A stretch of DNA of 12,917 bases from Kineococcus radiotolerans SRS30216 = ATCC BAA-149 (GTDB lineage: Bacteria; Actinomycetota; Actinomycetes; Actinomycetales; Kineococcaceae). The DNA lies in contig NC_009660.1 of NCBI RefSeq assembly GCF_000017305.1, positions 1 through 12,917 of the forward strand, in the 5' to 3' direction. Below the pieces are notes generated by a model. The model saw only the letters and a program-made list of their open reading frames with translations, had not been told where the DNA came from and did no database searches. This document shows positions 443 to 12,917 of this stretch, one piece after another (position 1 is the first letter of the stretch; the number at the start of each line of letters is the position of its first letter). The position numbers and the translations under genes were made by a program.

Positions 443-901
443 TCAGAGGACGATGCCGGTGTGATCGCCGCGAGGGCGGGGCTCGGGTTCCCAGGGCTTG
501 GCCGGCGGGCCCTGCGGCGGGGTGGCCAGCTCGCGCAGCTGCGCGGCGATGGCGTCCTGGACGCGCTGCTGCAGCGCCTGCGCGGCCTGGCTGGCGGGGT
601 CGGGCGTGACCGCCTCGGTGACCGCCGCAGCCGCCGAGCGGATGGCGGCCTCGGTCGCCGCCATGGTCGTGGGGTCCACCACCGCGCGGTTGCCCGGGGG
701 CAGGGCGGCCACCATCGCCTCGGCGTGGGCGCGCACGGCGGCGGCACGCTCAGCCCCAGGCCCGTCCTCGCGGCCGGACGCGCTGCGCATCACCGCCGGC
801 GCCGGCGGCATGGGCAGTGGCGACTGGCCCAGGGCCTGGCGCATCGCGTTCACCTTCATGGCCACCAGGTAGGGGTGGTCGGGGGGCAGTTCCTGCGGCA
901 T
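443..901 (-). CDS. Hypothetical protein (152 aa)
   Basis: This is the ORF-track frame 443..976 with the start moved to ATG 901..899. That ATG overlaps the TGA at 903..901 of the upstream gene (TGATG). GGAG at 910..907 lies 5 nt upstream. GC3 is high. I recognise no family. Confidence 0.55.
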   Translation of the reverse strand: MPQELPPDHPYLVAMKVNAMRQALGQSPLPMPPAPAVMRSASGREDGPGAERAAAVRAHAEAMVAALPPGNRAVVDPTTMAATEAAIRSAAAAVTEAVTPDPASQAAQALQQRVQDAIAAQLRELATPPQGPPAKPWEPEPRPRGDHTGIVL

Positions 902-1308
902 CAGTTCTCCAGGTAGCTGCTGAGCGAGATCACCGAGGCGTCGTCCTCGGTGGGGGCTGCGGTCGGCAGGTGCCACCGCAGGCGTTCGCGCGCCAGGGCG
1001 GACAGGCCCAGGCGGTCCTCCAGGGCGCGCAGCTCGGCCATGCGCTTGGCACCGGCTTCATCGCCACGTGCGATGGCGGTGCGCAGCAGGACCACGCGCA
1101 CCGTCACCGCCAGGTCGGCGGCGGGGTCCCACTGGCTGGCCATGGGCGAGGACCACAGCAGCCAGAACTCGGCCACGGCGTCCTTGCCGGCCTCGCGCAC
1201 GACCTCGGGCACCTGCTGGGGCCTGGACCAGTTCGGCGCCGTTCCCAGCACCGGCAGATCGGTCCACCCGGCCGGGCGGCGGTGGCTACGTGCGTCACGG
1301 GGCAACAT
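901..1308 (-). CDS. Putative phage terminase small subunit (TerS)-like protein, 135 aa
   Basis: This is the C-terminal part of the ORF-track frame 901..1953. ATG 1308..1306 is preceded by AGGAG 9 nt upstream. The motifs FWLLWSSPMASQW and AELRALEDRLGLSALARERLRW resemble, from memory and unverified, the W..W.sP.A..W and GL(T/S)P..R.RLR(W) signature of actinophage or P27-type small terminases. An alternative start is GTG 1521..1519, which forms a GTGA overlap with the upstream stop. Confidence 0.5.
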   Translation of the reverse strand: MLPRDARSHRRPAGWTDLPVLGTAPNWSRPQQVPEVVREAGKDAVAEFWLLWSSPMASQWDPAADLAVTVRVVLLRTAIARGDEAGAKRMAELRALEDRLGLSALARERLRWHLPTAAPTEDDASVISLSSYLEN

Positions 1309-1787: not shown

Positions 1788-4459
1788 TGGTCGTCCTCCA
1801 CGGTGTCCTCGGTGGGTGGTTCCCGGTGGTTCCCGGGTGGTTCCCCGGCGGTTCCCGGAACCACCCAGCCAGAGCCCTCCAGGTGGTTCCCCGGTTCCCC
1901 GGTACTAGACGGGGAACCGGGAACCACCGGGGCGGCACCACCCTCGGACCCACCTGCAGGGCTCAGGTGGTTCCCGCCGTCGAACTGGTCACTGCGCGGG
2001 TCCTGCGCCTCGCGGTAGCTACGCACCGAGCGGTGCAGCTGTGAACGGCCGGGGCCGGGGGTCGCCGCCACGTAGCCCTCGGCCACCAGGGTCGCCAACG
2101 CCTGGCTGCGGTACTGGGGCCGCCCCCGCATCACGTCCGTGTCCTTGGTGAGCAGGTTCGTGGTCAAGGGTTCGGGGCTGGCCTCCAGCACCTTGGACAG
2201 TCGTTCCATGTACCCCGTCAGCCGCGACCCGCCACCGCTGTGGCCGACGCCGGGGCCGTCGTCCTCGCCGCTCTCACCACCGACTGCTGGCGGGTCCACC
2301 ACCACGCGGATGGCCTCGCCGTCGCTGGAGTCCACCGAGACCCGCGCGACCTCGGCGGTGCGGTCGCTGGCCCGCCACGGCATCGCCGCGTGCGGGCGCA
2401 CCCCGCCGGGGCGGTCCTTGGCCACGCGCACCACCACCAGCCCGCGCATCCCACGCCCCAGCGGCAGCTTGGGTTCCACGATGTAGGCGGCGTCGCAGGC
2501 GGCGAGCTTGGCCTGGCTGCCGATGGCCCAGCGCCCCCGGGTGTCGCGGTCCTTGGTCACGTGGTCGATCAGCACCACGGCCGCGCCAGTCTCGCGCGCG
2601 ATGCGCCGGGGCACCCCACGCATCCACGCGGTCACGTCGTCGCCGTCCTTGGAACTAGCCCCGGCCAAGCCCAGGAACTCCGTCACCCCGTCGATCACCA
2701 CCATGTCCACCGGCTGCGCCAGCAACTGCTGCCACGCCTGCGCCTCGCTGAGCACCCCGGGGCTGACCTCAGGGCGCACGTAGCGGAACCGTTCACCCGT
2801 CAGCACCTCGGCCGGGGCCCCCATCGCCAGCAGCCGGGCCACGACGTTGCCGGGGGTGTCCTCACCGTCGATGTAGACCGCGCTGCCGCCGGCGGCCAAC
2901 ACCCGGGCGACCTCGGCCTGGGCCAGCAAGCTCTTGCCGCTCTCGGGTTCACCGGCCAGCGAGTGGACCCGCCCGGCGTACAGCAACCCCACCCCGTCGG
3001 TACGCGGCATGAACTCGGCCACCGGCACCACGTGCTCGCCGGCGACGACCGCCGCCAGGTCCACCGGCGCCCACGTAGCGCGTACGGGTTCGCCGCCGTC
3101 CTCTCCGGCGTGCGGGCCGGTGTCCTCCCCGCTGTCCAGGCCGGCGTTCTCGCGGCCACGTTCGGCATCGGCGGTCACGTCGTGGCGGTGCTGCAGGAGT
3201 GCGAGGGGCAGCGCCGCCGCCGGCAGCGGTGAGGATGCGCGGCTGCCCCGGCGCTGCACGTGGCGCTCCTGCAGCACCGCCACGACGTGGGCGGGGATGC
3301 CGAACGTGGCCGCACCGGGCACCCCGTTCAGCGCCGGCTGCAGCTTGTGGCAGAACGCGCTGAGGTCGCCGCCGAACCCGGCGAGGTGGGACAGCAGCCG
3401 GGGCACGTTCAGGCCCACCCCGGTGGGCAGGTCGGCGTTGTCCGACCAGTTCACGAACACGTCGTGCCCGTCGTGCCCGCTGTGACCCGACACCGGGTTG
3501 GACGGGTTGCCCGGCCGGCGCCACTGCAGTTCGCCGGTGGGGCTCTGGGCCACCGCGGTCCAGCCCGCGGCCTCCAGGACCTCGCGCACGCTGAGGTGCG
3601 CGGCGAGGGTCTCCAACAGGTTGGTGCCCCCGCCGGTCTCGTCGGCGAGGAAGCGCCCGGTGTTGGTGGTCGGCGCGCTGCGCGCCGGGGCGCCGACGGA
3701 GAACGCCGACGGCGGCGTCCTGGACACCGACACGGGGTGGCGGGCGTCGAGGTCGGCGCTCCACTGCTGGAGGTGGGCGAGGGTGTAGCGGGGGCCGTCG
3801 GCCAGCAGGATGCGCCGCAGCACCGGGCGCCGCCCGGGCTTGCGGCTCACCGTCCCCGCGGCGCCGAGGACCCGCGCGAGGTCGTGGGGCTTGGGGTCGT
3901 AGACGAACCCCTGGGCGGCGAACCCCCGCGCCACGCCCTCCCCGAGCCGGCGCAGCAGAGCAGCGACCGCGGCGCGGTTGCCGTCGTCGATCAGCTCGGG
4001 GTGCTCCAGCAGGAGGTAGGGGTGCTGGCCGTGGCCGCTGTCGACCAGCAGCGACGGGGGCGGCAGGACCTGGGAGAACAGCTGCGCCAGCTGTTCGCTG
4101 TCGCGCGGCAGCACCAGGCCGTCTTCGCGTTCGGGGGTTTCGTGCGCCAGCAGGGTGTCGCCGTCGAACCACGCCCCGGGCAGCACCGCCGAGGCGGTGT
4201 CACCGCCTCGGCCGCGCTCGGGACGCTGACGCTGCGAGCACACCCGCAACCAGACACTGCTGGCCGCACTACTCCAGCTGGAGGCGATGGCCTCGGCCTG
4301 CTCCGCGGTGTCCAGGTGGACCGTCCACGGCACCGCACGGTCGGGGAAGGCACCCGTCAGCGAGACCAGGAAACCGGGCGGCACCAGGCTCTGGACGTGC
4401 TGCAGGAACTGCGCACCATCGTGTTGCGGCAGGTAGCTGACCGGCTCCACCGCGCTCAC
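1784..4459 (-). CDS. Bifunctional AEP primase-polymerase / RecA-like (RepA/DnaB-type) replicative helicase with a C-terminal winged-helix-like domain (891 aa)
   Basis: This is the ORF-track 992-aa frame with the start moved to GTG 4459..4457, which overlaps the upstream TGA at 4458..4456.
- AEP motifs read by eye: AWFDGD (DxD), LLVDSGHGQHPYLLL (sGxGxH) and VYDPKPHD...GTVSRK.
- Helicase part: Walker A GEPESGKS, Walker B-like DMVVIDGV, and VVLIDHVTKD.
- A wHTH-like segment follows: LTGYMERLSKVLE...ALATLVAEGYV. Confidence 0.9.
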   Translation of the reverse strand: MSAVEPVSYLPQHDGAQFLQHVQSLVPPGFLVSLTGAFPDRAVPWTVHLDTAEQAEAIASSWSSAASSVWLRVCSQRQRPERGRGGDTASAVLPGAWFDGDTLLAHETPEREDGLVLPRDSEQLAQLFSQVLPPPSLLVDSGHGQHPYLLLEHPELIDDGNRAAVAALLRRLGEGVARGFAAQGFVYDPKPHDLARVLGAAGTVSRKPGRRPVLRRILLADGPRYTLAHLQQWSADLDARHPVSVSRTPPSAFSVGAPARSAPTTNTGRFLADETGGGTNLLETLAAHLSVREVLEAAGWTAVAQSPTGELQWRRPGNPSNPVSGHSGHDGHDVFVNWSDNADLPTGVGLNVPRLLSHLAGFGGDLSAFCHKLQPALNGVPGAATFGIPAHVVAVLQERHVQRRGSRASSPLPAAALPLALLQHRHDVTADAERGRENAGLDSGEDTGPHAGEDGGEPVRATWAPVDLAAVVAGEHVVPVAEFMPRTDGVGLLYAGRVHSLAGEPESGKSLLAQAEVARVLAAGGSAVYIDGEDTPGNVVARLLAMGAPAEVLTGERFRYVRPEVSPGVLSEAQAWQQLLAQPVDMVVIDGVTEFLGLAGASSKDGDDVTAWMRGVPRRIARETGAAVVLIDHVTKDRDTRGRWAIGSQAKLAACDAAYIVEPKLPLGRGMRGLVVVRVAKDRPGGVRPHAAMPWRASDRTAEVARVSVDSSDGEAIRVVVDPPAVGGESGEDDGPGVGHSGGGSRLTGYMERLSKVLEASPEPLTTNLLTKDTDVMRGRPQYRSQALATLVAEGYVAATPGPGRSQLHRSVRSYREAQDPRSDQFDGGNHLSPAGGSEGGAAPVVPGSPSSTGEPGNHLEGSGWVVPGTAGEPPGNHREPPTEDTVEDDQ
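1816..1975. repeat. Iteron array (GTGGTTCCC, direct and inverted copies); candidate replication origin inside the 3' end of the primase-helicase gene
   Basis: Copies by position:
- Exact GTGGTTCCC at 1816, 1826, 1837, 1883 and 1967.
- Degenerate direct copies at 1848 (GCGGTTCCC) and 1891 (CCGGTTCCC).
- Inverted GGGAACCAC, exact at 1919..1927.
- Inverted partial copies at 1857..1864 and 1912..1920.
The arms 1883..1900 and 1911..1927 form a 17/18-nt inverted repeat around GGTACTAGAC (1901..1910). Confidence 0.6.
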
Positions 4460-5836: not shown

Positions 5837-6964
5837 TCAGGAGCACCGGCGCCGGGCGTTCGCCTCGCGCAGGGCGGCGAGGGCGTGCTGCGCGATGGGG
5901 GGCAACACCGCCGAGGCGGTCTGCCGCTCGGCGGCCTCAGCGGCACGCCGAGCGCGCACCGCCTCCAGGCGCTGCTGCTGCGCCGCATGGCCGGCCAGGG
6001 CCCGCTCCAGCCCCATGGCGTCGATCAGCTGCCCCCACGCCTTCAGGCGCCAACGCAGGACCGCCACAGGGTGCTCGGGGGTCGTCGCGGCGGTGCGCAG
6101 GCTGCCGTCCGGGGCGTGGCCCACGACGTAGACCACCTGGTCCGGGGTCAGCTCCAGCAGGCCGGCCTGGCGCAGCAGGCTGGCCAGCCACGGCGTGGAG
6201 ACCGCCAGCAGCTCGGCCAGCCAGGGCAGGTGCTCGGCCTCGGCCAGGGTCTGCGCCCGGTGGCGCACCTTGGCGGCCAGCAGCAGCTGATCGGTCCTGG
6301 TCTGGCCTCGCGTCGGTGATCCATCCCGGCGCAGCCGCCGCCTGGCCAGGTCGTCGTCCCGGCGTGTCGCTGCACGTTCTGCCACTGCGATCCGGGTATC
6401 GCGCACCCGCGCGTGGGTGATCTTGTTCCCTCTCTCTGTAGAGAGAGGGGGGGTGACATTTCGTAGAATCCTGTTCTGCGGCAACACCTCTGCAGAGGTC
6501 TGCTGGGGTGCGTCAGCGGGGTCCACCGGGATGGTCAGGGCGTAAACGGCGCAGCGGTTGCCGTCCTGGCCGGCGGCCGGGTGGTGCCCGCCCCGGGTGC
6601 TGGGGGTGCTGCCGTGCTCCAGGACGACCAGCAGCCCCAACGCCTCCAGGCGGGCGCGCAGGCGGGCCACGGTGCGCTCGGTCAGGCCTAGCTGGTCAGC
6701 GGCCTTGGTGCGCACCAGGGTCGTGGTGCCGTCGCCGCGTGCGCTCTTGGCCAGCAGCCAGGCGTAGGCCAGCAGGTGCTCGCGCAGGTCGCGGCGCCCG
6801 GCCTCGGCCGTGATGACCTCACGCACGTGGCGCCACCAGGCCGGGGCGTGCCGGCGCCGGCGGAGGCGCCCGGCGGCGTGCGGCGAGGTGGGCAGGTCGT
6901 GGTCGCGGGGACCGTGCTGGACCTGGAGCGAGGGGGCGGCGCTGCGGTGCGCCGTGGCGAGCAC
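5837..6964 (-). CDS. Winged-HTH domain protein (375 aa), possibly a plasmid Rep- or regulator-type protein
   Basis: This is a long, high-GC3 ORF. The N-terminal wHTH-like segment is TKAADQLGLTERTVARLRARLEALGLLVVLEHG. I cannot assign the family by eye. The GTG start at 6964 is uncertain. Confidence 0.7.
   Translation of the reverse strand: MLATAHRSAAPSLQVQHGPRDHDLPTSPHAAGRLRRRRHAPAWWRHVREVITAEAGRRDLREHLLAYAWLLAKSARGDGTTTLVRTKAADQLGLTERTVARLRARLEALGLLVVLEHGSTPSTRGGHHPAAGQDGNRCAVYALTIPVDPADAPQQTSAEVLPQNRILRNVTPPLSTERGNKITHARVRDTRIAVAERAATRRDDDLARRRLRRDGSPTRGQTRTDQLLLAAKVRHRAQTLAEAEHLPWLAELLAVSTPWLASLLRQAGLLELTPDQVVYVVGHAPDGSLRTAATTPEHPVAVLRWRLKAWGQLIDAMGLERALAGHAAQQQRLEAVRARRAAEAAERQTASAVLPPIAQHALAALREANARRRCS
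6428..6499. repeat. Two perfect palindromes in a local low-GC patch inside the 375-aa gene
   Basis: CCCTCTCTCT-GT-AGAGAGAGGG lies at 6428..6449 and ACCTCTGCAGAGGT at 6486..6499. The codons here are atypical for the gene (ATT CTA CGA AAT ... ACA GAG AGA). Confidence 0.7.
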
Positions 6965-7043
6965 GTCAGGCGGCCGTCAGCCGTCCCGGCGAGGTGTCGG
7001 TAGGGCTCGGGGGCCCCGTCCAGGTGTCGTTCCGGCCACGGAA

Positions 7044-7068
7044 GCGTGTCAGGGACACCCTGACACGC
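7044..7068. promoter_or_regulatory. 25-bp palindrome GCGTGTCAGGG-ACA-CCCTGACACGC upstream of the 375-aa gene; candidate operator or hairpin
   Basis: It has perfect 11-bp arms and a 3-nt centre, about 80 bp upstream of the GTG at 6964 on the minus strand. Confidence 0.4.
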
Positions 7069-7294
7069 CGAGGGGGGCGCGTAGTTCTCGCGCCGGCAGG
7101 GGTTCCCTGCTTACTCTGGTCCTGCACCGCTGCTCCCGAGGGGCTACTCGTGAGTTGTGGAAGGGCCCTCGTTGTTGACGCAACGGGGGCTCTTGGCTGT
7201 CCGGGGTCGGACAGGTGCCCTGACCCTGCCCGCGATCACGCTTGGGACCTACGCGACACGCCGCACGTCAGGGCAGGGTGGTCCACCACGACGA

Positions 7295-7332
7295 AGGCCC
7301 TGGCGCCGGCTGCAGTCCGGTCACCAGGGCCT
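7295..7332 (-). terminator. Hairpin AGGCCCTGG-(20 nt)-CCAGGGCCT immediately after the stop of the AT-rich small ORF
   Basis: The 9-bp perfect stem spans 7295..7303 and 7324..7332. On the plus strand it is followed by TCATCTTATTT, and on the minus strand by TTCGTCGT. It sits exactly at the G+C / A+T composition boundary. Confidence 0.45.
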
Positions 7333-7336
7333 CATC

Positions 7337-7477
7337 TTATTTAGCTCTAAAATACTTTATAACTTCCAGAATTTGGGCAATCAATTCTGGTGAAACTGGC
7401 CCAATATGTTCAATCGCTTTAAGGCTCAATTGAAATGCCATATAGATTAGTAGTAGAAATACGCCTTCAATTCCCAT
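7337..7477 (-). CDS. Small hydrophobic peptide (46 aa) encoded in the low-GC island
   Basis: ATG 7477..7475 is preceded by AAAAGGA (7492..7486) 8 nt upstream. The peptide is MGIEGVFLLLIYMAFQLSLKAIEHIGPVSPELIAQILEVIKYFRAK, with one TM-like segment and a charged tail. The ORF-track version (85 aa, TTG at 7594) would include its own putative promoter. Confidence 0.35.
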   Translation of the reverse strand: MGIEGVFLLLIYMAFQLSLKAIEHIGPVSPELIAQILEVIKYFRAK

Positions 7478-7533
7478 AATAGTTATCCTTTTCGTTAGTT
7501 GAATTACATTATTCCTCGGCCAAAGGAGATTAC

Positions 7534-7563
7534 ATCTTAGCACGCCGACCATGATCACGTCAA
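7534..7563 (-). promoter_or_regulatory. Sigma70-like promoter candidate for the small ORF (TTGACG, 18 nt, TAAGAT)
   Basis: On the minus strand the -35 TTGACG lies at 7563..7558 and the -10 TAAGAT at 7539..7534, with an 18-nt spacer. Such hexamers arise easily by chance in AT-rich DNA. Confidence 0.3.
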
Positions 7564-7614
7564 GTCCAAGGAAAGCCAACGTGTTGTGCCACAACGAATC
7601 TCGACGCCTTTAAA

Positions 7615-8187
7615 TCAATTGTTTAAACTGCGATAAAGCGTGGCCCGACTGACCCCCAGCGCCTCGGCGGTCTCGCGGACGCTGTGGGCCTCGCCGGCGA
7701 GCATCGCGCGGGCGGCGGCGATCTTGGCTGGCGTCATCACCGTGGGTCTGCCCCCGCGCCGGCCTCGGGACCGCGCCGCTGCCAGCCCGGCCTCGGTTCG
7801 CTCACGCACTAGGTCGCGCTCGAACTCGGCAAGAGCGCCAAAAAGGTGCAGCACCAGCCGGCCGGTGGCCGTGGTGGTGTCGATGGACTCGGTGAGGCTG
7901 CGGAAGCCCACGCCTCGGGCGGCCAGGCCGTCCACGACCTCCAGCAGGTGCCGCAGCGACCGCCCGAGGCGGTCCAGGCGCCAGACCACCAGGGTGTCCC
8001 CCGGGCCCATCCCTTGCAGCGCGACCTCCAGCTGTGGCCGGCTGGTCAGCGCCCCCGACGCCATGTCGGTCAGCACCTGGGCGCAGCCAGCGGCTACCAG
8101 GGCGTCCTGCTGCAGGGCGGCATCCTGGTCGCCGGTGCTTACCCGGGCGTAGCCGATCAGCCGGCCGGTGGTCGTCAGCGTCGTCAT
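7615..8187 (-). CDS. Small serine recombinase (resolvase/invertase family)
   Basis: The catalytic motif is GYARVSTGDQ. The VVWRLDRLGRSLRHL and GALAEFERDLVRERT motifs are present, with a C-terminal HTH (SVRETAEALGVSRATLYRSL). The start is taken as ATG 8187; an in-frame GTG at 8205 is also possible. Confidence 0.9.
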   Translation of the reverse strand: MTTLTTTGRLIGYARVSTGDQDAALQQDALVAAGCAQVLTDMASGALTSRPQLEVALQGMGPGDTLVVWRLDRLGRSLRHLLEVVDGLAARGVGFRSLTESIDTTTATGRLVLHLFGALAEFERDLVRERTEAGLAAARSRGRRGGRPTVMTPAKIAAARAMLAGEAHSVRETAEALGVSRATLYRSLNN

Positions 8188-8434
8188 GAGCGCGGACCCT
8201 GCCACCTGTCTCAGACGCCGTGGCCGTCAACGCAGCGTTGCGGACACGGGTTGTGCGACGGCGTGGCGCGGTGGCCGGGCGCGTCGCACCAGTTGTCTCG
8301 CAACCGAGCGGTTCTGAGACGCCCGGAAGGGCCCATGTGACTGCCACAGCCGGGGCACCCATTCACCGTGCAGCTGGCGGTCGGCAGCAGGTCGGCCCCA
8401 GCACGACACCGGATACCTACCGAGAGGCACGACC

Positions 8435-8754: not shown

Positions 8755-9039
8755 ATGCCCGTGACCTACCGTGCCGCTGCGGTGCGCCCGAGGTCGCCCC
8801 GGCCAACCTGCGCCAGACGGCACCCTGACCTCATGCAGCAACGTCGGCTGAACATGGGCCCCAAGCGCAAGGCGTGGGGCGTGGAGCGGGTCACCATCCG
8901 TGGCCGGGACCGTGGCCTGGAGTACCGCCAGCGGGTGATGCGAGTACGCATGCCCGGCTGGGGCAGCTGGCTCAACATCCCGCTGGGGCGTCGTGTGTGG
9001 GTGCACGACTACACCCACCTAGGACCTGGCGGTCTCTGA
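8755..9039 (+). CDS. Hypothetical small protein; start uncertain (ATG 8755, 8833 or 8854)
   Basis: This is the C-terminal part of the ORF-track frame 8368..9039. GC3 is about 80% by my count, and the sequence looks protein-like (KAWGVERVTIRGRDRGLEYRQRVMRVRMPGWGSWLNIPLGRRVWVHDY). No clear SD is present. Confidence 0.35.
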   Translation: MPVTYRAAAVRPRSPRPTCARRHPDLMQQRRLNMGPKRKAWGVERVTIRGRDRGLEYRQRVMRVRMPGWGSWLNIPLGRRVWVHDYTHLGPGGL

Positions 9040-9102
9040 CCTGCATGTTTACATGCATACATGCCATCTTGCTGACCTGCAGGCATGTCTGCATGCAGGA
9101 AT
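9037..9102. repeat. Low-GC CATG-rich repeat cluster downstream of the partition operon; candidate centromere-like site
   Basis: It contains GTTTACAT (9047..9054), GTCTGCAT (9087..9094), TACATGCC (9058..9065), the direct repeat CTGACCTGCA (9037..9046 and 9072..9081), and the palindromes CCTGCAGG (9076..9083) and CTGCATGCAG (9089..9098). Confidence 0.45.
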
Positions 9103-9103
9103 G

Positions 9104-9484
9104 TCAGCCGTCGTGGCGCTCTAGGTACTCGCTCAGCGCGGCGGCGGTCAGGGCCTGCACGGTGGTGTCGTTCTCGGCCGCCCACCGCTTGACCCGCCGG
9201 CGCAGCGTGGGGTCCATGCGCACGCTGAACATGGGCAACGCCGCCGCCGGCTGACCTGCCGGCGCAGCCGGGCTGGTGACGGGCTCGGCCACCGACTCGG
9301 CAGCCGGCGCGGACTCAGGTGCAGGCGCGGCGTCAACGGCATCCGAGGGCGCGGGGTCGAACCCGGGCAGGAACGGGTCCTGCAGGTCATTACCGGCCAG
9401 CGCTGCTGCCGGCGCCGGCGGTGCGACGGGGTGCACAGCGGCCGGGGCCTTGCGCAGCGCGGTCTTGGGGGCGGGCTTGGCCAT
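9104..9484 (-). CDS. Ribbon-helix-helix (CopG/ParG-like) protein; likely centromere-binding partner of ParA
   Basis: ATG 9484..9482 overlaps the parA TGA at 9486..9484. The N-terminal half is disordered and Ala/Pro-rich. The C-terminal RHH is FSVRMDPTLRRRVKRWAAENDTTVQALTAAALSEYLERH. Confidence 0.7.
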   Translation of the reverse strand: MAKPAPKTALRKAPAAVHPVAPPAPAAALAGNDLQDPFLPGFDPAPSDAVDAAPAPESAPAAESVAEPVTSPAAPAGQPAAALPMFSVRMDPTLRRRVKRWAAENDTTVQALTAAALSEYLERHDG

Positions 9485-10275
9485 CAGGACACCTCCACGG
9501 TGCTCGGGGTGCTCAGGGTCTGCAGGGCCAGGACGCGCTCGGCCAGGGCGTCGTAGACCTCGGCCACGGGCTTGCCGTCCGCGCCGTAGTCAGCCACCGA
9601 GGCGGCAGCGCCCATCGCCGCCGCCACCACCGCGCGGGCGGGCACGTAGGGCTCCCACACGGCCGCGCCGTAGACCTCGGCCACCTCGGCCACGCGCAGC
9701 GCCGACTCGGTGGTGCGGTTCTGGTGGTTGACGACGATGCCGGCCAGCTGCAGCTTGCGGTTGTAGTGCTCGGCCACCACGTCCCGGGTGCGCAGGACGT
9801 TCTCCACCCCGCGCAGGCTCGCCGCCGAGGGCTCGGTGACGACCACCACGTGGGTGGCGGCCACGAACCCCAAGACGACCAGCCGGCCAATACTCGGAGG
9901 GCAGTCGATCAGCACTACGTCGTAGCCGCTGAGCCCGTCCAGGGCCTTGGCCAGGCGGAACTCGCTGCCGGGGGACAGGTCGGTCTCGCGCTCGGCCAGG
10001 TCCAGCGTGGAGCCGATTACGTCGATGCCCGCACCCCAGCCGGCGTGCTGGATGGCCTCGGCGGCGATGCCTCGGGTGTCGGCGTACACCGCGTCGTTGA
10101 CGTTGCGCACGTCGTCCAGCGGGTCCAGGCCGAGCCACTGCGTCAGGTCGGCCTGCGGATCCAGGTCGATGCAGAGCACCCGCAGGCCCCGGCGGTCCAG
10201 GGCGGCGGCGATGCCGACGACGGTGGAGGTCTTGCCCACCCCGCCCTTCTGGTTAGTGAACGCGACGGTCAGCAT
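9484..10275 (-). CDS. parA: ParA/Soj-family partition ATPase
   Basis: The deviant Walker A is MLTVAFTNQKGGVGKTS. The LCIDLDPQADLT and VVLIDCPPS motifs are present. The protein is 263 aa. Confidence 0.95.
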   Translation of the reverse strand: MLTVAFTNQKGGVGKTSTVVGIAAALDRRGLRVLCIDLDPQADLTQWLGLDPLDDVRNVNDAVYADTRGIAAEAIQHAGWGAGIDVIGSTLDLAERETDLSPGSEFRLAKALDGLSGYDVVLIDCPPSIGRLVVLGFVAATHVVVVTEPSAASLRGVENVLRTRDVVAEHYNRKLQLAGIVVNHQNRTTESALRVAEVAEVYGAAVWEPYVPARAVVAAAMGAAASVADYGADGKPVAEVYDALAERVLALQTLSTPSTVEVS

Positions 10276-10317
10276 GTCTACATACCTACATGTCTACATG
10301 TTGGCATGCAAGGACAT
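10268..10317. repeat. Tandem 8-bp iterons phased on CAT, overlapping the parA start; candidate parC/operator
   Basis: The units run consecutively from 10268: GTCAGCAT, GTCTACAT, ACCTACAT, GTCTACAT, GTTGGCAT, then GCAAGGACAT. Confidence 0.5.
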
Positions 10318-10816: not shown

Positions 10817-11137
10817 ATGATGAAGGACCCACCCGGCCGCGCCGATCATCCAGGGGTGAGCACGACCACCCCCGCCGGCGCGACCAGCCAACGCGCCCGA
10901 TAGGCCCGCACGGCGGTCACGGCGGTCACGGCGGTCACGGCGGTCACGGCGGTCACGGCGTCGCGGCACGGTCAGCCGTGGACCGCGACCGAGGACGTCG
11001 AACTGGCCGCCTGCGTCAATGACGACGACCTGGAGGCGTTTGCGTGGCGGTGGGGACGACGGTTCCTGTCCGTGAAGCAGCGGCGTCGCCGTCCCCGCAC
11101 GGGGACGACGCGAACCGGCACGGGCTGGGTCCGATGA
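10817..11137 (+). pseudogene. Myb/SANT-like (W-T-x-x-E-D) small DNA-binding ORF interrupted by an in-frame TAG at 10901..10903
   Basis: My translation is MMKDPPGRADHPGVSTTTPAGATSQRAR-TAG-ARTAVTAVTAVTAVTAVTASRHGQPWTATEDVELAACVNDDDLEAFAWRWGRRFLSVKQRRRRPRTGTTRTGTGWVR. No ATG, GTG or TTG lies between the TAG and the conserved W. The stop TGA 11135..11137 overlaps the next ATG (11134). Confidence 0.4.
10909..10960. repeat. 9-bp tandem repeat CACGGCGGT, 5 full copies plus 7 nt
   Basis: Read directly. The units start at 10909, 10918, 10927, 10936 and 10945, with a partial unit at 10954. In the three plus-strand frames it encodes (TAV)5, (HGG)5 or similar. Confidence 0.95.
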
Positions 11138-11517
11138 CCGACGACACCGACACCGACACCGAGGCCGTGGCGGTCAAGCTGCTGCCGACCGATCCCCAAG
11201 ACATGACCCCGCCGGCAGTGGCCTGGGCCAAGGCGGTGCTGGCGGAAGTGCGGACCATCCCGCGTGCGCGGCTGCAGGCATCGGCGCGTACATCGCTGAC
11301 GGCGGTGACGTGGACCCTGGCCGCAGCGGCAGACTGGCTGTACACGATCCTGCCGAGTTTGCCGCCGCGGTCCTCGCGGCTCTGGGCACAGCATTTGGGG
11401 ATGGAACGGCCCCCGGAACCCCAGGTGTTGTGGACTGAGGGGTGGACAAGGCGGGGACCGGCTGCCGTCCCCCTGTGGAGGACACGCCGACACGACACGA
11501 CACGCCGAACACGCTGA
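11134..11517 (+). CDS. Hypothetical protein (127 aa)
   Basis: This is the ORF-track frame 11044..11517 with the start moved to ATG 11134, which overlaps the upstream TGA (ATGA). The N-terminus is acidic (MTDDTDTDTEAV). GC3 is high. Confidence 0.55.
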   Translation: MTDDTDTDTEAVAVKLLPTDPQDMTPPAVAWAKAVLAEVRTIPRARLQASARTSLTAVTWTLAAAADWLYTILPSLPPRSSRLWAQHLGMERPPEPQVLWTEGWTRRGPAAVPLWRTRRHDTTRRTR

Positions 11518-11815
11518 GTCACGACCACTGACGACGGGTGGCCGCCAGGGGGGTGACGACGGAGCAGAACCGCAGGTCAGGGGTTTTGCACGCTCAGATG
11601 GCGTGCGGCGGAGTCCGATGCGTGAATGACATTCTTGTCACACACCATCTTGTGCCGGTTTTCCACACGACCCCGTAAGGGTAGTGTCCAAGTACCTGGA
11701 TCACCCAGGCGCGGAACAGGAAAACCCCGGTCAACGCGGCGTCCTAGGAAAACTACGCGGCGACCAGGGTCCCTGTACTGCTTGCTTCGCAACACCCACA
11801 TGGAAGGGATCCCAC

Positions 11816-12445: not shown

Positions 12446-12917
12446 TCAGGCCGCCGGGGCGCCGTCCTGCGCGTCCAGGGCGTCCAGCCAGGCGGTGGCG
12501 ACCTGCTGCGGCGTGGGCGTCCACGACCCGTGCGCCACCAGCGTCAGCAACTGCTGGACGGGCCCGCCCTGCCAGGGGCTGGCCGGTTCCGGGGTGCCCG
12601 GGGGCACCAGGGGGCGCCGCCAGGCCGGCCACGCGGTGGCGAACCCGGGGCACCACAGCACCCGGGCCCGGGCCAGCGCCGTCATCGTCGCGGCGGTGCC
12701 CGGCACCACCTCCCGGTCGCGCCCGGCGGTCAGGTAGGCGAACAGGGCCAGGTGCACCCGCCGCACCGTCTCCAGCTCGGCGTGCAGGGCGTGCAGGCGG
12801 GCCACCGCCGCGCGGGCCCGGTCGCCGGCCGCGCCGTTGGTGCGCAGCAGATCGTCGGCGGTCAGCGCCTGGCCGTGCTCACCGACGACGGCGCGCACCT
12901 GGACCATCAGCGCGTCG
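12446..12917 (-). CDS. Hypothetical protein, C-terminal part; the frame is open to the right edge
   Basis: This is the ORF-track frame 12446..12907. The frame stays open upstream (GAC GCG CTG before ATG 12907), with base 12917 as the third base of a codon. GC3 is very high. It probably continues the 1..428 ORF across a circular junction. Confidence 0.6.
   Translation of the reverse strand, partial: DALMVQVRAVVGEHGQALTADDLLRTNGAAGDRARAAVARLHALHAELETVRRVHLALFAYLTAGRDREVVPGTAATMTALARARVLWCPGFATAWPAWRRPLVPPGTPEPASPWQGGPVQQLLTLVAHGSWTPTPQQVATAWLDALDAQDGAPAA

Follow-up and report, generated by a model that had tools for sequence, protein, structure and literature searches.

The circular plasmid pKRAD02 (CP000752; 12,917 bp) of Kineococcus radiotolerans SRS30216 (PMC2587704) carries, at positions 7333-7640, a sharply bounded low-GC island that runs into the last codons of an intact gene for a Gin-like small serine recombinase. 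The window analyzed here is the whole plasmid at its full length of 12,917 nucleotides, and coordinates refer to it unless a relative is named. On a slight balance of probability, the island is horizontally acquired low-GC cargo that carries an unannotated small gene and belongs, as its 3' part, to a portable recombinase module of about 1 kb. This reading draws on computed base composition, codon usage, recombinase intactness and sequence signals, and on the recurrence of the arrangement in one relative and its absence from others. From these we infer the horizontal origin of the island, the transcription and translation of a small open reading frame (ORF) within it, and a role for the encoded peptide, which we propose with low confidence to be a small plasmid-maintenance or regulatory accessory protein that travels with the recombinase.

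Under this model, the island would have been acquired as a small piece of cargo DNA beside a res-like site and the Gin-like recombinase. A sigma-70-type promoter at 7563-7534 would drive a compact minus-strand unit made up of a leader, a Shine-Dalgarno sequence, a 46-codon ORF and a hairpin at 7332-7295, and the recombinase transcript would read through to end at the same hairpin. The compositional junction would then fall within the last 8 or so recombinase codons, leaving the enzyme whole.

A low-GC island reproduced in independent assemblies

The island has a G+C content of 38.3%, compared with 72.3% for the whole replicon. The initial annotation, made from the letters of the sequence, had estimated about 39% for the island and about 34% for its most extreme part, between flanks of about 70%. 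Recomputation bore these estimates out, giving 38.7% for 7341-7640 and 34.4% for 7341-7520, with 70.0% in the left flank (7000-7332) and 74.7% in the right (7641-8000). The lowest 260-nt interval anywhere on the replicon starts at 7332; at 38.1% G+C it lies about 5.4 standard deviations below the mean (72.2%, standard deviation 6.3%). The left edge coincides with a 9-bp hairpin, as had been noted from the start: its arms, at 7295-7303 and 7324-7332, are 9 nt long and 100% complementary.

An assembly chimera or vector contamination, which the abrupt change in GC and a junction rich in restriction-type hexamers (DraI, MfeI) might suggest and for which a check of both junctions had been proposed, can be dismissed, because the island and both junctions are present at 100% identity in three independent Logan assemblies (SRR5887280, SRR5887262 and SRR5887119, among 13 contigs on record; these also close the circle), the island DNA matched nothing among plasmids, phages or E. 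coli genomes, and a natural relative has the same layout.

The compositional junction falls inside an intact recombinase gene

The recombinase gene (7615-8187, minus strand) encodes a small serine recombinase of 190 amino acids whose Pfam domains, homologues and structure match identify it as Gin-like and intact. The product is 100% identical to an annotated K. radiotolerans protein (P0001, 'recombinase family protein'). Its Resolvase catalytic domain (PF00239, E=4.7e-43) spans residues 17-149 of a 196-amino-acid reading, and the HTH_7 domain (PF02796, E=2.3e-7), matched over profile positions 1-43 of 45, is complete and untruncated by the island. The closest solved structure is that of the Gin DNA invertase (4m6f, E=2.6e-52); matches to gamma-delta or Tn3 resolvase structures are far weaker, with E-values of about 1e-22 to 1e-24 (9e-24 for gamma-delta).

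The last seven sense codons and the stop codon of this gene (CTT TAT CGC AGT TTA AAC AAT TGA; 7615-7638, minus strand) are A/T-rich, and we judged them by codon counts and by the C-termini of homologues. In a reference set of 1,841 codons from the other plasmid genes, TTA supplies 0 of 193 leucine codons and CTT 2 of 193, TAT is used for 0 of 24 tyrosines, and AAT and AGT occur 2 times in 29 and 8 times in 106, respectively. The codon switch at the 3' end of the recombinase gene is therefore real and far beyond chance, and the right edge of the island does lie inside the gene, where it had first been placed. Homologues keep the motif GVSRATLYRxL followed by a short variable tail, and several stop one to three residues past the leucine, as the pKRAD02 recombinase does. 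Since the A/T-rich codons still encode the conserved end of the helix-turn-helix (HTH) recognition helix (LYRSL), the recombinase is not truncated; an alignment of homologues had been proposed as a check on where C-terminal similarity ends, and it finds a normal C-terminus.

Two routes could have joined low-GC DNA to these last codons: recombination with a low-GC homologue, giving an equivalent 3' end, or drift or selection in situ, spreading from the island. No low-GC donor recombinase ending in LYRSLNN, or with the same 24-nt 3' end, was present among the loci and proteins that we fetched.

The same codons contain an in-frame slippery heptamer, T_TTA_AAC (7619-7625, minus strand), with the sole TTA codon in the plasmid genes counted. 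Programmed -1 frameshifting, or a fusion of the recombinase to the island frame, was considered and rejected, as the -1 frame meets a TAA (7612-7610) after three more codons.

A probable compact transcription unit within the island

A scan of 7000-8400 found one promoter-like site, a sigma-70-like TTGACG-18-TAAGAT with a TG extended -10 element, located within the island at 7534-7563 on the minus strand. A leader of about 55 nt separates this promoter from the small ORF, 46 codons long (MGIEGVFLLLIYMAFQLSLKAIEHIGPVSPELIAQILEVIKYFRAK; 7337-7477, minus strand, ATG at 7477), and a Shine-Dalgarno sequence, AAGGA, was read from the sequence 8 nt ahead of the ATG (7486-7490, minus strand). The ORF is 34% GC, its G+C content at third codon positions (GC3) is 0.26 compared with about 0.9 in plasmid genes, and of its 47 codons, 29 are of kinds that the plasmid rarely uses. 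Upstream, its open frame extends to 7609, which gives 71 codons from an ATG and 85 from a TTG; counted from stop to stop, 90 codons cover the whole island. Compared with shuffled sequences, the open frame of the island has p=0.023 overall and p=0.007 for the longest ORF that starts with ATG. AlphaFold predicts the 46-codon product to be a hydrophobic or amphipathic two-helix hairpin (helices at residues 3-25 and 30-45, mean pLDDT 80.5). The N-terminus is hydrophobic, with a Kyte-Doolittle value of about 2 over residues 1-15, and the hydrophobic stretch is about 15-17 residues long.

Four bases past the end of the small ORF begins the GC-rich stem-loop that marks the left edge of the island (7295-7332, minus strand). 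As minus-strand RNA, inner pairs included, it folds at -35.9 kcal/mol (z -6.4). The stretch between the recombinase stop codon and the small-ORF promoter has no RNA structure (z +0.8). Because the recombinase stop and the small-ORF unit are not separated by a terminator-like element, the recombinase transcript probably reads through to the hairpin, which is a likely terminator for the small-ORF and recombinase transcripts alike.

The island and its recombinase recur together in one relative

We fetched about 165 loci encoding related recombinases. The closest relative, represented by loci L004 and L005 from Joint Genome Institute (JGI) metagenomes, has a recombinase with 78% amino acid and 80.7% nucleotide identity to that of pKRAD02. 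The L004 enzyme is also 190 amino acids long and ends at the same position, and A/T-ending codons accumulate in its last 13 codons. Directly after it comes an island of 45% GC, compared with 75% for the gene. This island has a promoter on the same strand, TTGACG-18-TACCAT, which is the sole promoter-like site there and is identical to that of the window in its -35 element and spacing. A GGAGGA Shine-Dalgarno sequence follows, then a 37-codon ORF (MEVLVFLTAAGLIRSGIAHSPEIIQALAELLKVILNR, GC3 0.29), and then a hairpin that is a perfect 30-nt palindrome (-33.7 kcal/mol, z -7.0), centered on CTGCAG as the window hairpin is. The two peptides are 31% identical with a common core of ..I.H..SPE.I....E..K.., a score reached by 0.7-0.8% of shuffles.

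Nucleotide homology between the window and L004 runs from 8204 to 7631 and ends 16 nt ahead of the stop codon, where GC drops. Upstream of the recombinase, a collinear block of about 140 bp is kept in L004, and then similarity ends. The two sequences have nothing past the hairpin and no neighboring gene in common; what comes after the L004 island is a convergent HTH gene and not a replication gene. Given these limits of homology and the lack of common neighbors, a unit of about 1 kb, comprising a res-like site, the recombinase, the small ORF and the hairpin, sits in two otherwise unrelated contexts.

Among the related loci, the island was found in the window and L004/L005 only. Relatives at 70-76% identity (L006, L020, L024, L029, loci of K. 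gypseus and K. terrestris, and others) are without it, and their terminal codons are CTG or CTC and TAC. Since these relatives write the same residues with GC-rich codons, we read the island as a lineage-specific acquisition. A comparison of this kind had been proposed at the outset, along with the view that the island is an acquired foreign cassette or marks a recombination junction. That view holds up: composition shifts abruptly, relatives at 70-76% identity are without the island, and homology to L004 ends at 7631. Horizontal acquisition is recognized by base composition and codon usage that deviate from those of the replicon, both of which are found here, together with a patchy distribution. 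No donor lineage or matching sequence was identified elsewhere, as neither DNA nor protein from the island matched anything in any collection searched. Neither the island nor the 1-kb module is bordered by credible terminal inverted repeats or target duplications, and no transposase was found. The gene downstream of the island, for a 375-amino-acid protein, occurs in no relative, so synteny gives no insertion point.

Several other actinobacterial relatives (L106, L007, L019, L169 and L168) carry different lower-GC cargo (45-57% GC, compared with about 74%) directly 3' of the recombinase gene. In L106 this cargo (3553-4450 of that locus) is a ParA-like gene; in L169 (1230-2025) it is an unannotated 244-amino-acid ORF, with a convergent NYN-domain gene beyond; and in L168 (1657-2825) it comprises DUF6978 and DUF1828/DUF1829 genes. 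This variety of cargo right after the recombinase gene suggests that low-GC cargo recurrently occupies the position just 3' of the gene in this recombinase clade.

The window and L004 recombinases are separated by a synonymous divergence (dS) of about 0.57 and a nonsynonymous divergence (dN) of about 0.15; for the small ORFs dN is about 0.74, and their DNA is not alignable. The observed 38% and 45% would fit an island ancestor at about 30-35% GC that has since ameliorated in part along both lineages. Selection could also hold the tract AT-rich.

Homologue searches and the possibility of an inert remnant

Protein searches with the 85-amino-acid reading of the island ORF returned no match, and the L004 peptide matched itself only. 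A profile built from the window and L004 peptides, run against 1.84 billion representative proteins, matched multi-repeat HEAT proteins alone. Neither peptide itself matches any Pfam family, HEAT models included, even at E<=10, and we therefore judge the HEAT matches to be driven by repeats or composition. A tblastn search of the peptide against plasmids gave nothing meaningful, a hidden Markov model (HMM) search of all six-frame ORFs in about 170 fetched loci recovered the two known peptides alone, and Foldseek matched the helical-hairpin model to nothing in the PDB. At the nucleotide level, the island has no credible match in Rfam.

Residues 17-46 of the small ORF (7340-7420, minus strand), LKAIEHIGPVSPELIAQILEVIK, are very like the unit repeated in bacterial HEAT/PBS-lyase-like proteins, such as AIGHIGPAAATPEMLAGLAELLRD in protein P0122. 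This segment could be a case of helix-turn-helix convergence or a trace of the origin of the fragment.

A number of observations weigh against a functional small gene carried as cargo. Homologues of the small ORF are absent from protein sets of 5.8 billion and 1.84 billion sequences, from Pfam, NCBIfam and PHROGs, and from plasmids, phages and viral contigs. Neither gene caller annotated the ORF. The promoter and terminator calls are consensus matches only; the hairpin has no U-tail, and the scan found no canonical terminator. The likeness between the window and L004 peptides is weak, the small ORF is common to one independent relative only, and the open frame of L004 is no longer than expected by chance (p 0.19-0.54). 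At a recombinase dS of about 0.57, the AT-richness may be selected or may simply have yet to be ameliorated.

Several of these points would be explained if the island were an inert remnant, that is, a decaying foreign low-GC fragment (of a HEAT-repeat gene, for example) left by an old recombination event, in which the promoter and ORF features are incidental. We regard this as unlikely, although it is the likeliest of the alternatives. A peptide with no homologue beyond L004, an ORF in L004 of insignificant length and an ORF in the window that gene callers skip are all to be expected of such a remnant; -10-like hexamers arise readily in AT-rich DNA, and the only profile matches are HEAT proteins, whose repeat unit AIGHIGP..TPE.LA.LAELL is like the second half of the peptide. 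Against it, L004 has the same signals in the same order, from promoter and Shine-Dalgarno sequence to ORF and strong hairpin, even though nucleotide divergence is saturated, the open frame of the window is unusually long, the likeness of the two peptides has a p-value of about 0.007, and the peptides reach no Pfam HEAT model.

Selected AT-richness, toxin-antitoxin and replication origin models

A bolder alternative, which we find more doubtful than an inert remnant, treats the 37-46-amino-acid two-helix peptides as the founding members of an unannotated small-protein family coupled to Gin-like recombinases on actinobacterial plasmids. The peptides might act as recombination accessory or regulatory factors in a Fis-less host, or as plasmid-addiction peptides; to our knowledge, the host phylum has no Fis. 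The AT-richness, including the TTA codon of the recombinase, would then be kept by selection, through Lsr2-type silencing or rare tRNAs for example, and would not be a transient signature of transfer. Lsr2 prefers AT-rich DNA in high-GC actinobacteria. Like Lsr2-bound xenogeneic DNA, the island is sharply AT-rich within a replicon of more than 70% GC, so that binding, which was raised when the island was first described, is plausible from composition alone. It differs from such DNA in being a tract of only about 300 bp on a 13-kb plasmid.

The hydrophobic ORF might also be a membrane toxin controlled by antisense RNA in a type I toxin-antitoxin system, or the unit might yield a functional transcript such as a small RNA, in either case serving plasmid addiction. 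Like Hok/Sok and Fst/RNAII, pKRAD02 has a short plasmid ORF with its own strong promoter, a hydrophobic N-terminal helix and a structured leader able to pair with the start region, and the ORF lies beside maintenance genes (parAB and the recombinase). Unlike in those systems, no antisense RNA signal was found: a scan of the plus strand for promoters gave two 8/12 matches and none of at least 9/12, although an antisense transcript could escape such a scan of sequence. In the window peptide the hydrophobic stretch covers no more than about 15-17 residues, and in L004 it is broken by Arg and Ser; conservation of a transmembrane segment is not clear. Neither Rfam nor any known toxin family, Hok and Fst included, yielded a match. 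We consider this model improbable.

A little less credible again is the idea that the island is the DNA-unwinding element of a replication origin, with the downstream 375-amino-acid protein (5837-6964, minus strand) as initiator. In favor of this idea, that protein has a winged HTH and is weakly similar to O-like initiators of phage replication (PHROG E=0.003), no other DNA of the replicon is as AT-rich as the island, and cumulative GC skew peaks at about 7200-7300. However, no iterons, direct or tandem repeats or DnaA boxes occur in 7000-7700, iteron-like repeats lie elsewhere (1814-1903), and in L004 the island accompanies the recombinase with no rep gene after it. An origin would also leave the small-gene signals unaccounted for.

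The recombinase site lies most likely upstream of the gene

The region of the recombinase stop codon had also been put forward as a cis site for the enzyme, within about 7600-7640, on the strength of its palindromic units. The sequence described there, TTTAAA-T-CAATTG-TTTAAA, is indeed present at 7609-7627; its palindromic character is at chance level. An imperfect 28-nt palindrome with DraI/MfeI-type hexamers spans the stop codon at 7605-7632, and we judge it to be a chance feature of AT-rich DNA. With 10 of 14 positions paired it is the best 28-nt palindrome in the island, and this quality is equalled in 14% of shuffles; six 6-nt palindromes occur in the island where 5.6 are expected.

The proposal that this palindrome, or the island as a whole, is a res, hix-like or crossover site of the adjacent recombinase has some appeal, given that the palindrome has an AT center, that the enzyme is Gin-like and that the half-site TTTAAAYMA is found here only. 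Invertase sites such as hix and gix are 26-bp palindromes with A-rich half-sites. Yet a search that tolerated mismatches found neither a further copy of the half-site on the plasmid nor a partner or accessory subsite, and the stop codon of L004 has no palindrome though its recognition helix GVSRATLYR is identical. A conserved inverted cluster of half-sites is found upstream of the gene instead. Taken with the chance-level palindrome, these findings fail to bear out a recombinase site at 7600-7640, and we give such a site very little credence.

The upstream cluster makes 8210-8325 (minus strand) a candidate res or crossover region. It holds a 26-bp site, GTCTCAGAACCG-CT-CGGTTGCGAGAC, with 12-2-12 inverted geometry, as well as further GTCKCRNAACC half-sites; the three exact matches to GTCKCRNAACC on the plasmid all fall at 8249-8320. 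The 8210-8325 block is kept in L004, including a 15-nt exact match, and the upstream limit of homology falls here. Because this is the canonical position of res and homology with L004 begins there, the site of the recombinase is most likely upstream and not in the island. In its closeness to Gin and in having an upstream candidate of 12-2-12 form with ..AACC near the center, the pKRAD02 recombinase resembles the Gin/Hin/Pin/Cin invertases; unlike for those enzymes, no second inverted site or invertible segment was found on pKRAD02.

Between the recombinase stop and the small-ORF promoter lies a further 13-bp palindrome, GTTGTG-C-CACAAC (7583-7595). The CACAAC core seen in the upstream half-sites is part of it, with the relative orientation reversed.

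Comparison with resolvase-associated cargo

The reading that we favor, acquired low-GC cargo within a recombinase module, invites comparison with the res/resolvase cargo of plasmids and Tn3-family elements. As in that cargo, GC content and codon usage set the pKRAD02 segment apart as foreign and it lies against a small serine recombinase gene, homology with a relative runs from the res-like site through the cargo and no further, and the same slot holds other cargo in relatives. It differs in size and content, being about 0.3 kb with one 46-codon ORF, and no transposase or terminal inverted repeats were found. It also differs in that the junction lies inside the last codons of the recombinase and not in an intergenic spacer.

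As it stands, the island is a tidy case of mosaic plasmid evolution that belongs to a familiar class, acquired low-GC DNA beside a recombinase, and involves no new mechanism. The gene list of a sequenced reference plasmid would gain a small gene that its annotation lacks. A functional peptide would be a new small protein linked to a recombinase, and selected AT-richness would make the island a compact case in which to test xenogeneic silencing on a small plasmid.

Other features of pKRAD02

The genome paper (PMC2587704) was the only publication that we found on pKRAD02; it gives replicon sizes and is silent on the island region. The circularity of the plasmid is seen in a Logan assembly that links position 12917 of the window to position 1. 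Gene content includes parA (9484-10275), a ParB-like ribbon-helix-helix gene, the recombinase, the 375-amino-acid protein, an HTH regulator and an 891-amino-acid AAA_25 helicase-like protein, and nearly all of these listed genes lie on the minus strand. A 135-amino-acid protein (901-1308, minus strand) matches the Terminase_7 small-subunit domain (E=7.6e-7). Together with the likeness of the 375-amino-acid protein to phage initiators, this match hints at phage-related ancestry for parts of pKRAD02.

Several repeats stand out. A perfect 9-bp tandem repeat, CACGGCGGT in 5.8 copies, occupies 10909-10960. Each of the three independent short-read assemblies is interrupted at 10938, and the longest of them is without 10939-11639; the repeat is probably the cause of this assembly gap, and its copy number could vary. 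A motif of about 26 nt, CTGACCTGCATGTTTACATGCATACA (8-nt unit CATGTCTA), has copies at 9036-9097 and 10265-10306, on both sides of the parA/parB-like operon, and these copies may serve as centromere or operator sites. Iteron-like tandem repeats (GGGTGGTTCCC in 4.2 copies and GGTTCCCC in 2.4 copies) span 1814-1903, where the 891-amino-acid AAA_25 helicase-like gene has its 3' end, and are a stronger candidate for the origin than the AT-rich island is. Cumulative GC skew is lowest at about 3100, inside the helicase-like gene, and highest at about 7250, beside the island, and gene orientation is uniform over this span.

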